Source: Perkinsus olseni (lineage: Eukaryota). From it: a stretch of 50,624 bases of DNA. Position 1 is the first letter of the stretch. The number at the start of each line of letters is the position of its first letter. The notes below the pieces were generated by a model. That model had not been told where the DNA came from. It was given only the letters and a program-made list of their open reading frames with translations, and searched no databases. Location: positions 1-50,624 of the forward strand of contig JABANN010000225.1 of assembly GCA_013115125.1 (NCBI GenBank), read 5' to 3'. Below, in pieces: positions 8,613 to 11,442 of this stretch. The position numbers and the translations under genes were made by a program.

Positions 8613-11442
8613 TCAAGCTGCCGTCTTCGGCCCGCCAGCTGTGTCCGCCTCGGCCCAGCATTTATGCCGGACGTAGTAACCGTCGGGCGACACCTCCAAC
8701 CTCGGATCTGCCGAGACAACGATGATTCCTTCGAAGACCACAGAAAGCCCATCACCTTGTTTTCCGCATCGCTCCGTCCGCATTACATGAACAACTTCCG
8801 CCTGGTCGTCCGAAAGATCCCGGAGTCGGTCAAATTTCATCAGTTCATGCACTGGCACCCAGTGTGTCCCAGGGTAGGCCTGGAGGGGACAGATCGACAC
8901 AATAAATCTGCACGCATGCGCAAGCAGCATTACCAAACTCCTCAAGTGCTCGTCCTTCTCCCAATTGGGTTTATTCAGCCACCATTCGACCTGTCGTCTG
9001 ATCGACCCGAATTTCTTCTTCTGTCTCTTCAACGCGGACTTGTCAGAGGCGATTGGAGGGACATACGCTAACGATGAAATCTTGGGGCCCTTCTTGTTGG
9101 CCGGGGAGGCGACGTGCTGGCCTGAATATATCCACCATTCCGCCCAGGTTCTATCCCCACACCATACCAATTTGCTTTTGCTTTTGCTGCTGCTGCTGCT
9201 GCTGCTGAGGCTCGCCCGCACTGGGAGCATTCTCTTCCGGGTCGTGGACGAGAAGACCGAACATATCTTTTTCAGGGATGACCTGTCGAAAGAATCTTGC
9301 GCACGGCAAAGATTTCCAGCCGCGAATAAATCTTTTACTTACGTCATGCCGACCCTTGCAATCTACAAGTACAGCTTTTCCGTTATCCAACGCCAGTAGC
9401 TTCCACACCTGAGTAAGAGAGTTGTCATCCTCCCATCGAAACGACCCAGGTTCAATTCCCACTACCTCTGGTTCTAACAGTTTGCTTCTGCCCGTAACAG
9501 GATCCGCTTGCAAACTTCGGAACTTGACAAACTGGCCGGCCCTCAAATCTTCGACCTTCTCATGCCAATCGTCGAACCTGAGCAGGCCATCGTGAAGGCT
9601 GAGAATTCCAATGCTTATGACACACCACCCAAAGAAAACGATAAAATCTGATACTAAGAAACGGGCCGTAATAAAGTAATGGAAATCTAATAAGCCAGCC
9701 GCTAGCCATTCTCTTACCACCAGGCAGCAAGGATCAATACCTCAGAAAAATCAGTAAACCACCCTCGCTTTGCCCTCCTGTGGTACTACTTCCAATTGGA
9801 TTCCTTCGCCTCCTCCTCCGGCGGTGTTTGGGGCTTTCGGGCAGCAACAAAACGAACTTTATCATTCCCAATCACCTCCTGCTGTTGCTGATGGACGGGA
9901 GCGGGGGCGGCCTCAACTTTCCGTCGCTTCGGCTGAGGTGTCGGCTCCGACGCCGCTGAACTCTCGTCAGACGAAGATTCACTCTCCGAGCTCGAAGAAG
10001 AGGATGAGGACGTCGGCGAGGAAGGTTCATTCTCCTGTGTTTGGGCTATCGGTGCCACGGCCTTCACCGCTTCAGCCACACTCTCCTCCTCATCACTTGA
10101 ACTCTCGCTCTCACTTGAACTTTCTCCACTCATATCCTCATCACTACTGCTACTAGGCGCCCTTCCCGTCGGCTTTGGAGTCCCCTTGCGAACCTCCCTA
10201 AGGCTGCGCTTTTTCGGAGTGGAAGTTGAAGTTTCGTCCAATCGGATACGACGGTCGCCCTCCCCCGCCGACGGTGGCAAAGCATAGATGACGGACGGCT
10301 CCTCCTCGCACGGCTCTCCGTCGACTGTGACGAGTTCATCATCCCGAAGAATCTGAATTGACTTCAGCGTTAGCAGAGAAGATTTCGCGTGAGTCGCATC
10401 GTTAGTCGAGCGTCCCTGTAGGCCGAAGCGAAGGGGCCAGGAAGAGCATTACCATCACGACGAAGCAATTTCTGTATACCAGAAAACCACATTAAAAATT
10501 TCGGGAAGAAAAATTTTGAGCATATTTCACCAGTTCAGATGAAAATTCTTCGGAAAACCCTAAAAAACGGAAATTACCAGAATTGAGGTAAAAAACATAA
10601 GGCTGGTGATATGAGTATTGTGGGTGAACGGGATGCGCACAACTACAAGGAATCACGAGCAAACTCCTCCCTTCAGTACCTCTCGCACGACACTCTCGTT
10701 GGGGAGTCGAAAACCATCGATCGATACGGACCACTGAGAGCATTGGCCCTTCAAGTGGGAGAGATACGGCCGGGTTTGGAGATGATGCAGGAGATCCGAT
10801 ACAGTACGGACTGTCGGCGGGACCTAAACGTATCCTGCACGCTTCAACCTAAGATATTCTCGCGCCGAGCCGGGTACGATTATGATTAGCCCGCACTATG
10901 CTCGCAGCTTCCGACGAAAAAACAGAATTCGGTAGCTATCGAATATTGGCAGCCAGAAACCCAATTGAACGGTTCTTCTTTCTTCCCTCCTCTAAACCAA
11001 AAAAAGTCGAGTTCGGCGGTTACGGCGGAAATGATAGCCGTCCCAAACTCGCTTTCAATACGATGGACTCGAGTCGGAGGGGGACTGGTTGAACTTACAG
11101 CGGAGCTCAATCAAACACACTCAAAAGACCTTACTCTTGTGTAAGAAAAATCACGTCTGATAGATTTTACGAACCAAAAATAAAACGCTTATGACCCGTC
11201 TCCACAAGTAGCGTCCGCAAGACACTAACGAGAAACACTGAAGAACCGACGATACCGCTGACAAGACTCGCAATGTGGATAGAACAGTTAATTCATACAT
11301 GTACTTTGCCTAACCTAACCTGAATCTTGCACGCTCAACCCCAAGATACTACCACAATCATCATCGACTGATATCCTCCCGCCTCGAATGAGCCGCTCGC
11401 GAAGGTCAACTTGAGCCGAAGAGGTCCCGTAGTTGCCGACAT
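8613..11442 (-). CDS. Coilin-like protein (Coilin_N, acidic/Ser-rich linker, Tudor-like domain) with a C-terminal La motif; multi-exon
   Basis: Exon 1 11442-11353 (MSATTGPLRLKLTF). Exon 2 10823-10680 (TVSDLLHHL...SIDGFRLPNESVVRE). Exon 3 from 10352 (ILRDDELVTV), then S/E-rich tracts, LRAGQFVKFRSL, polyQ, and IRRQVEWWL..NWEKDEHL..WVPVHELMKFDRLRDL..LEVSPDG. Confidence 0.7.

Follow-up and report, generated by a model that had tools for sequence, protein, structure and literature searches.

Does the minus strand of Perkinsus olseni contig JABANN010000225.1 (NCBI GenBank assembly GCA_013115125.1, positions 1 to 50,624; this whole stretch of 50,624 nucleotides (nt) is the window) carry, at positions 11442..8613, one gene in which a coilin-like protein is joined to a La motif, and what might such a protein do? 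An earlier reading, made by a model from the letters alone (the sequence-only reading), had proposed a gene of this kind. The present analysis confirmed that gene and fusion are both real, and the transcript data support that a single spliced mRNA with a single open reading frame (ORF) codes for the coilin-like N-terminus, the acidic Ser tract and the La motif. The protein most likely belongs to the coilin family, as judged from sequence profiles and structure models in which one defining domain, Coilin_N, was recognised and the Tudor domain fell under the bar set for naming it. We lean, by a small measure, towards the reading that it is the Perkinsus coilin orthologue with an extra C-terminal La motif, in which the coilin part would build a Cajal-like condensate and the La motif would hold the 3' ends of U-ended small RNAs.

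Gene structure

The coilin-La gene has nine exons and an ORF of 498 amino acids (aa), and it runs from the A of the ATG at 11442 to the final base of the stop codon at 8613. The exons, with the joints that were listed for them in the transcript contigs described below, are the following.

11353..11442, minus strand: exon 1, aa 1-30, with the ATG at 11442 and the start of the Coilin_N-like domain (LRLKLTF); joint 10821->11351 in 4/4 runs
10680..10823, minus strand: exon 2, aa 31-78, middle of the Coilin_N-like domain (TVSDL, IDGFRLP); joint 10352->10680 in 4/4 runs
9790..10352, minus strand: exon 3, aa 79-266, end of the N-terminal domain (ILRDDELV) and then the disordered region, with the acidic Ser tract at aa 143-214 (10160-9945), KRRK at 9929-9918 and no RG dipeptide
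9466..9577, minus strand: exon 4, aa 266-303, start of the Tudor-like barrel (FDDWHEK...); joints 9575->9788 and 9406->9464 in 4/4 runs
9343..9408, minus strand: exon 5, aa 304-325, middle of the Tudor-like barrel; joints 9406->9464 and 9280->9341 in 4/4 runs
9168..9282, minus strand: exon 6, aa 326-364, end of the Tudor-like barrel and the polyglutamine (polyQ) tract (CAG repeat, 9207-9184)
8934..9121, minus strand: exon 7, aa 364-426, the conserved basic linker, then the opening third of the La motif (RRQVEWW; Q407, W410, W411, D420, H422)
8756..8879, minus strand: exon 8, aa 427-468, middle of the La motif (F442); joints 8878->8933 and 8707->8756 in 4/4 runs
8613..8707, minus strand: exon 9, aa 468-498 and the stop at 8615-8613, last La strands (RLEVSPDGYYVRHK) and a 15-residue tail, too short for an RNA recognition motif (RRM)

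All eight introns (529, 327, 212, 57, 60, 46, 54 and 48 nt) are of the GT..AG type, and those of 57, 60, 54 and 48 nt, which are small and in frame, interrupt the Tudor-like and La parts together with the one of 46 nt. When the exons were joined by coordinates with a script the coding sequence came to 1497 nt, that is 498 codons and the stop, with no internal stop. The peptides quoted in the sequence-only reading were recovered from the minus-strand translation at the place given for them (LRLKLTF at 11421-11401, TVSDL at 10805-10791, IDGFRLP at 10721-10701 and ILRDDELV at 10352-10329), and its remark that the first two exons are missed by the list of ORFs was borne out, since exons 1 and 2 are open frames of just 47 and 56 codons, which a list with a floor of 60 aa would pass over. 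Its exon picture had to be revised, there being nine exons and not about five, with intron 3 ending at acceptor 9578 and not at 9599.

At the end of intron 3 two in-phase AG acceptors stand 21 nt apart (9578 and 9599), of which the downstream one, 9578, was used in 4/4 runs; acceptor 9599, if used, would give seven extra residues. An exon model with acceptor 9599 and the four small in-frame introns left unspliced was overruled by the RNA contigs.

Transcript evidence

Contigs from four public runs (X1-X4, from four studies; X3 is on record as RNA-seq and the other three are guessed to be RNA) were aligned to positions 7500-11800. The phase-consistent splicing proposed from the letters was actually seen, seven of the eight introns appearing as clean CT..AC joints (GT..AG on the minus strand) in 4/4 runs and the eighth following from the arithmetic of the records. 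This eighth intron, of 46 nt (9167-9122), lies between the Tudor-like and La parts and is not among the listed joints because the alignment skipped the CAG repeat at 9162-9217. In X1 record 2, X3 record 9 and X4 record 11 the pieces aligned to 8933-9122 and 9788-10352 are separated by 290 record letters; exons 4-6 make up 293 nt, which less the three letters that fit both sides of a joint gives 290, and retention of the intron would give 336. Since the intervening length is exactly 290 letters, the 46-nt intron has been removed in all three contigs.

Two separate transcripts, named beforehand as the outcome that would undo the fusion, did not turn up: single contigs of 1426-1501 nt join every exon from the first to the last in three runs. 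Those of X3 (record 9, 1501 nt) and X4 (record 11, 1499 nt) begin 2 and 4 nt inside the ATG and finish 6 nt past the stop, and that of X1 extends 27 letters into exon 1. The coilin-La RNA contigs end at 8595-8607; at the other side they stop short of the mRNA 5' end, and an AG was found 2-3 nt upstream of the ATG.

Run X1 also holds, beside the spliced form, an unspliced contig of 586 nt over the acceptor end of intron 1 (10795-11380), which is one of pre-mRNA, contaminating DNA or intron retention. Odd joints backed by 26 letters only, 7765->8089 (X1 and X4) and 8114->10096 (X1 only), are taken for chimeras.

Public models and conservation

A search with the translated La exon matched five proteins among 438 candidates, all of them from Perkinsus. 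The joined product is 95% identical to P. olseni model P0002 (490 aa) and 71% identical to P. marinus model P0003 (488 aa), and both of these have exactly the RNA-supported exon structure. Three of the five public Perkinsus models carry Coilin_N and La, the remaining two being truncated or mis-fused. Models P0001, P0004 and P0005 are wrong: the last two continue into the RING gene downstream, and the first is cut short and retains introns. The public gene models that fuse or truncate the coilin-La gene are corrected by the structure given above.

The unreliability of these models, the unlisted joint of the 46-nt intron and the caveat, general to alignments of this kind, that a contig spanning two genes is no proof of a single transcript could together suggest an artefact, in which adjacent coilin-like and La genes were wrongly joined by prediction or by contig assembly. 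This explanation is nearly refuted, as the frame is stop-free through all eight splice joints, the list of stop-to-stop frames holds no ATG-led frame for the La part by itself, the length found in three independent contigs agrees exactly with loss of the 46-nt intron, the spliced-leader (SL) site of the next gene is met only at 8540, past the stop, and P. marinus keeps the same single model.

Sequence comparison supports that the build of Coilin_N plus La is kept in P. marinus. When P. olseni and P. marinus were compared part by part, the La motif was the best-conserved part of the protein (94% identity), followed by the pre-La linker (87%), the N-terminal domain (82%), the Tudor-like part (80%), the disordered region (58%) and the polyQ linker (31%).

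Searches further afield were performed in several ways. With phmmer against 1.84 billion representatives six matches at E <= 0.001 were obtained, two of them from Perkinsus, using a query in whose exon 4 seven residues of intronic origin and a translation of the 57-nt intron were included; these intron-coded residues weaken the search where distant homologues are concerned. Four proteins, P0006-P0009, were rejected as relatives, as they match query stretches within 25-77 that are centred on the intron-coded residues 45-63. Word-based searches, made once with all of P0003 and once with its residues 255-488, gave five matches each, all five from Perkinsus in both cases, and two metagenome scans gave 201 and 327 pattern stretches of which none was confirmed. 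The same architecture, which had been expected to be worth seeking in other alveolates, was found only in Perkinsus by these searches of limited reach. That it appears confined to Perkinsus is a property of the searches and not of nature, because their reach is limited for a fast-evolving, intron-rich protist gene.

Coilin-like domains

The Pfam family Coilin_N (PF15862, ubiquitin-like) matched residues 1-95 in all three full-length Perkinsus models, with E values of 6.8e-7 (P0003), 1.7e-6 (P0002) and 1.4e-5 (P0004) over profile positions 1-135 of 139; on exon 3 alone the E value was 0.044. Structure searches of the ESM Atlas were made with the Atlas model of P0003, using residues 1-110 for the N-terminal domain and 250-345 for the Tudor-like domain. 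For residues 1-110, rows 1, 2, 3 and 5 of the ten structure rows are coilin clusters from plants, chordates and annelids, with template modelling (TM) scores by query of 0.67-0.71, and rows 1-2 reach the bar for naming Coilin_N. A search by Atlas features placed a fungal DUF7357 cluster in the top row (0.89) and a chordate Coilin_N cluster in row 3 (0.86); these feature rows are leads only, because all are below 0.9. Taken together the two methods identify the N-terminus as a probable Coilin_N domain, though below Pfam's own threshold. With Pfam E values of 7e-7 to 1e-5 and coilin clusters in Atlas rows 1-3, the other outcome named as fatal to the sequence-only reading, no profile or structural match to coilin, did not arise either. 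A complex prediction with two copies of residues 1-100 scored 0.00 against a mark of 0.32, and carries no weight for or against self-association.

Residues 96-266 form a disordered middle of low pLDDT (predicted local distance difference test). Within it, residues 131-225 contain 30 Ser and 16 Glu among 95 positions, and basic patches occur as KKR at 125 and KRRK at 220. An acidic Ser patch and a basic nuclear localisation signal (NLS) in a disordered middle are features of coilins, and by sequence both appear to be present here, the basic patch being NLS-like.

For residues 250-345, structure rows 1-2 of ten align to Tudor_Coilin domains, with a TM score of 0.70 for a fungal DUF7357/Tudor_Coilin cluster and 0.66 for plant coilin, the other eight rows being bacterial or viral small barrels with TM scores of 0.49-0.56. 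Feature rows 1-2 for the same residues are likewise clusters with Tudor_Coilin. The combination of DUF7357 and Tudor_Coilin presumably represents the fungal coilin of Mug174 type, to judge from passages of PMC11347179. An AlphaFold2 model of P0002, of low confidence, shows residues 267-345 mostly as beta strands, and the best Foldseek rows obtained with it, too weak to use (E >= 0.097), are small SH3-like barrels including Tudor and PWWP entries. From these models residues 267-345 are a probable coilin-type Tudor-like barrel. Of the architecture put forward by the sequence-only reading, the Coilin_N-like start, the acidic Ser tract and the C-terminal La motif hold, and the Tudor-like segment is a structural lead only, having no Pfam match and Atlas rows under the bar. 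The principal argument that the protein may be orthologous to coilin is that two domains point to coilin independently, and do so in coilin's order.

The La motif and its linker

Residues 346-402 comprise a polyQ tract that varies between strains, followed by a basic linker. The CAG/polyQ microsatellite in this Tudor-La linker lies at 9162-9217 on the minus strand (aa 351-358) and its lengths differ among the window, P0002 and P0004.

The La motif (Pfam PF05383, a winged helix) was found at residues 403-482 with E values of 4.2e-9 to 1.5e-7 in 5/5 models, covering profile positions 1-58 of 59 in four of the five and 1-54 in P0005. On the unspliced exon the match falls in two stretches, because introns interrupt the motif. 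By its sequence the protein thus shows the La motif that characterises the La and La-related protein (LARP) superfamily. A sequence search of the PDB gave eight matches, seven of them La or LARP7, with the La proteins of Dictyostelium, human and T. brucei as the best three and human LARP7 also present (4wkr, E 0.03-0.1); a profile search gave 17, nine of them La or LARP and the others lying in the low-complexity middle. No DUF3223 match was obtained in P0002 or P0003 at E <= 10.

An ungapped alignment with human La (1s7a) places Q20, Y23, Y24, D33, F35 and F55 at Q407, W410, W411, D420, H422 and F442, so that three residues are identical, two Tyr are replaced by Trp and one Phe by His. Of these, Y24, F35 and F55 of human La are residues that we take to belong to the 3'-end pocket. 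Q20, Y23 and D33 are UUU-3'OH contacts of human La according to passages of PMC9705548.

A possible role

In the reading that we favour, of a coilin orthologue with an additional La motif, the N-terminal ubiquitin-like domain would act in self-association and, with the remainder of the coilin part, would give rise to a Cajal-body-like nuclear condensate. La motifs recognise RNA 3' ends with a free hydroxyl (passages of PMC7928011 and PMC9705548), and the La motif at hand, perhaps with the basic linker and the neighbouring barrel, either of which may stand in for RRM1, could grip the free 3'-OH ends of U-ended small RNAs. Candidate RNAs would be SL RNA precursors, U6 and other transcripts of the RNA polymerase III type, and the small RNAs would become concentrated where Sm/Lsm loading and modification occur. 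A plausible ligand for the La motif exists, because most mapped 3' ends of Perkinsus SL RNA fall in a poly-T tract, as reported in passages of PMC3101222. A protist coilin with a motif of the RNA 3'-end-binding type would tie the scaffold to small-RNA ends and so offers a hypothesis for the function of coilin bodies.

A bolder form of this proposal, which we regard as rather doubtful, makes Perkinsus coilin a direct receptor of RNA ends, whose La motif grips the U-tailed SL RNA (and U6) and whose condensate is the site where the large amounts of SL ribonucleoprotein (RNP) that a trans-splicing cell needs are assembled. If true, no earlier coilin would have had an intrinsic, end-specific domain for binding RNA, and none would have been identified in an alveolate before it; as a natural 'Rosetta stone' the fusion would then speak for the handling of small-RNA 3' ends as an ancestral job of coilin bodies.

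Points against and alternative explanations

A number of observations weigh against the favoured reading and are collected here, together with the two alternatives that draw on them. On the coilin side, the Coilin_N scores of 25.5-29.7 bits lie below the curated cut-off of 32.9, and the N-terminal fold is a generic beta-grasp, with ThiS, ubiquitin, CLU and MoaE/ThiS among the Atlas rows. Residues 267-345 are without any Pfam match at E <= 10, Tudor_Coilin (PF23086) included, and the Atlas rows for Tudor_Coilin stay under the bar. Structure prediction had been suggested as a check: the best Atlas neighbours are coilin clusters, and AlphaFold2 with a three-sequence alignment of P0002 performed poorly (mean pLDDT 36.7, predicted TM score 0.22) and Foldseek of that low-confidence model against the PDB gave no match at E <= 0.001. 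There is no RG dipeptide in 498 residues, and the RG box is therefore absent. The RG box, which carries dimethyl-arginine, is the SMN-binding element of vertebrate coilin, and as a speculation its loss would fit a shift from protein-mediated to direct recruitment of RNA. No homologue outside Perkinsus was found in the protein-library and metagenome searches, which provide no wider comparative support.

The protein might, then, not be a coilin orthologue at all and instead be a lineage-specific La-related protein that has a ubiquitin-like domain and a small SH3-like barrel without any Cajal-type link. The Coilin_N score under the Pfam cut-off, the missing sequence match to Tudor_Coilin and the missing RG box would suit this explanation, as would the commonness of beta-grasp and SH3-like barrel folds, the presence of other families among the structural neighbours and the want of intermediate homologues outside Perkinsus in the searches made. 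We nevertheless hold it to be improbable, as coilin clusters top the structural rows for both domains independently, the domains follow coilin's order with an acidic Ser-rich disordered spacer and a basic KRRK between them as in coilins, and Coilin_N reached an E value of ~1e-6 in a whole-library search.

On the La side, the scores of 31.6-36.6 bits are just below the curated cut-off of 37.1, and the pocket is altered (Y23 and Y24 to Trp, F35 to His). No RRM follows the La motif, some 15 residues remaining past the last strand and no RRM family being matched at E <= 10. In Tetrahymena Mlp1, the La motif alone failed to bind uridylate RNA and needed an adjacent domain (passages of PMC9705548), and P. 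marinus has a separate La/DUF3223 protein, PmLa (Supplemental Table 1 of PMC7928011), which may already cover the classical La duties.

These features could also mean that the coilin-La fusion is real and its La motif binds another 3' end, such as oligo- or poly(A) as in LARP1 or telomerase RNA as in proteins of LARP7 type, or serves as a protein-interaction or structural module. Such a departure from genuine La would be in line with the changed pocket, the absence of a following RRM, the inability of the isolated Mlp1 motif to bind uridylate RNA and the existence of PmLa, and also with LARP1, whose La motif binds RNA 3' ends by itself and is specific for poly(A) (passages of PMC9458460). It is considered unlikely: the equivalents of Q20, D33 and F55 are kept and both Tyr are exchanged for another aromatic residue, the nearest solved sequences are genuine La with LARP1 appearing only at E 1.4, and a motif that is 94% identical between species points to a binding surface under constraint.

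Neighbouring features of the window

Downstream of the coilin-La gene a RING-H2 gene lies on the minus strand at 8540-7600, with a zinc-ribbon start, a zf-RING_2 domain at the end of model P0005 and five further small introns of 46-54 nt. In X1, X3 and X4 a loose end, TGAGCCAAG(A), occurs at 8540 and is the reverse complement of the 3' part of PmaSL1, an L-type Perkinsus spliced leader (passages of PMC3101222). The RING gene is a separate trans-spliced mRNA, because its contigs bear this spliced-leader end. On the other side of the coilin-La gene a divergent neighbour on the plus strand, 12102-12848, encodes a chitin synthase domain (Pfam Chitin_synth_1, E 5.3e-17) and lies ~650 nt from the coilin-La ATG. 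Features with exact coordinates outside the gene are the following.

8539..8540, minus strand: spliced-leader acceptor (AG) of the RING-H2 mRNA, ~75 nt past the coilin-La stop, a boundary marker outside the coilin-La gene
5967-6041, minus strand: tRNA-Arg(CCT), found by ARAGORN
49786-49867, plus strand: tRNA-Ser(AGA), found by ARAGORN

The motif GGTTCRAWYCC, which resembles a tRNA T-arm, occurs in nine copies in the whole window against 0.27 expected, one of them at 9449-9459 (plus strand) within the 57-nt intron 4. ARAGORN found two tRNA genes only, and just one of the nine copies falls in one of them. Because the translation of the intron copy matched the unrelated long proteins P0006-P0009, the copies suggest a tRNA-derived dispersed repeat that is translated in mis-predicted genes. 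An Rfam scan of 7500-12000 gave just two snoRNA rows at chance level (E 0.18 and 0.28), far below the gathering scores.

Comparison with known systems

Public databases already show Coilin_N and La together, through precomputed Pfam assignments, in proteins named 'hypothetical protein' or 'HTH La-type RNA-binding domain-containing protein'. Since the architecture is visible there, what is new is its recognition and interpretation and not the sequence. Animal and plant coilins are not known to have a La motif, which fits the Atlas coilin clusters, as these list only Coilin_N and Tudor_Coilin. In the titles, abstracts and passages of the literature on coilin with Perkinsus, the La motif or alveolates, and on LARPs with Perkinsus or alveolates, no description of a coilin-La protein was found; the main text of the LARP survey PMC7928011 does not mention coilin, and its supplement names one P. 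marinus protein only, PmLa.

Coilin is the scaffold and marker of Cajal bodies, the sites where small nuclear ribonucleoproteins mature (passages of PMC9530788 and PMC11347179), and passages of the latter state that its molecular role is still debated and that none had been reported in a unicellular organism until 2024. With the coilins of vertebrates, plants and fission yeast (Mug174, the coilin of a unicellular organism) the Perkinsus protein appears to share both its coilin-like parts and their sequence along the chain: a Coilin_N-like domain comes first, a long disordered middle that is acidic, rich in Ser and provided with a basic NLS-like patch follows, and a probable Tudor-like barrel comes third. 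It differs from them in the La motif C-terminal to the Tudor-like domain, where the Atlas coilin clusters list Coilin_N and Tudor_Coilin only, and in having no RG dipeptide, a Coilin_N similarity below the Pfam cut-off and a Tudor_Coilin domain undetectable by sequence.

In alveolates an RRM-less La motif is the rule for genuine La, and Tetrahymena Mlp1 binds UUU-3'OH pre-tRNA (passages of PMC7928011 and PMC9705548). With these proteins, Mlp1 and PmLa of P. marinus, the fusion has in common a motif of genuine-La type with no RRM following it and the kept equivalents of Q20 and D33. Their La motif is N-terminal and followed by a middle domain and DUF3223, whereas that of the fusion is C-terminal and accompanied by coilin domains; compared by eye, ~one fifth of residues are common to the La motifs of PmLa and the coilin-La protein.

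LARP1 likewise has a stand-alone, RRM-less La motif, which in its case recognises the RNA 3' end (PMC9458460 and PMC11259064). The LARP1 motif has poly(A) as its ligand and stands in a context of DM15 and PAM2, which is not seen in the fusion, and its match to the Perkinsus motif is weak (7soo, E 1.4). The LARP7 family (7SK LARP7, ciliate p65 and Pof8) resembles the fusion in carrying a La motif, theirs being dedicated to one nuclear small RNP, and differs in that LARP7 proteins have RRM1 and a C-terminal xRRM (passages of PMC7928011), neither of which occurs in the Perkinsus protein. A La module, with RRM1 directly after the La motif, is not found in the fusion, nor in alveolate La (passages of PMC7928011) or LARP1 (passages of PMC9458460). 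Lacking a La module, the Perkinsus fusion does not count as a canonical LARP in spite of its La motif, and it would give RRM-less La motifs a third setting, next to those of alveolate La/DUF3223 and LARP1.

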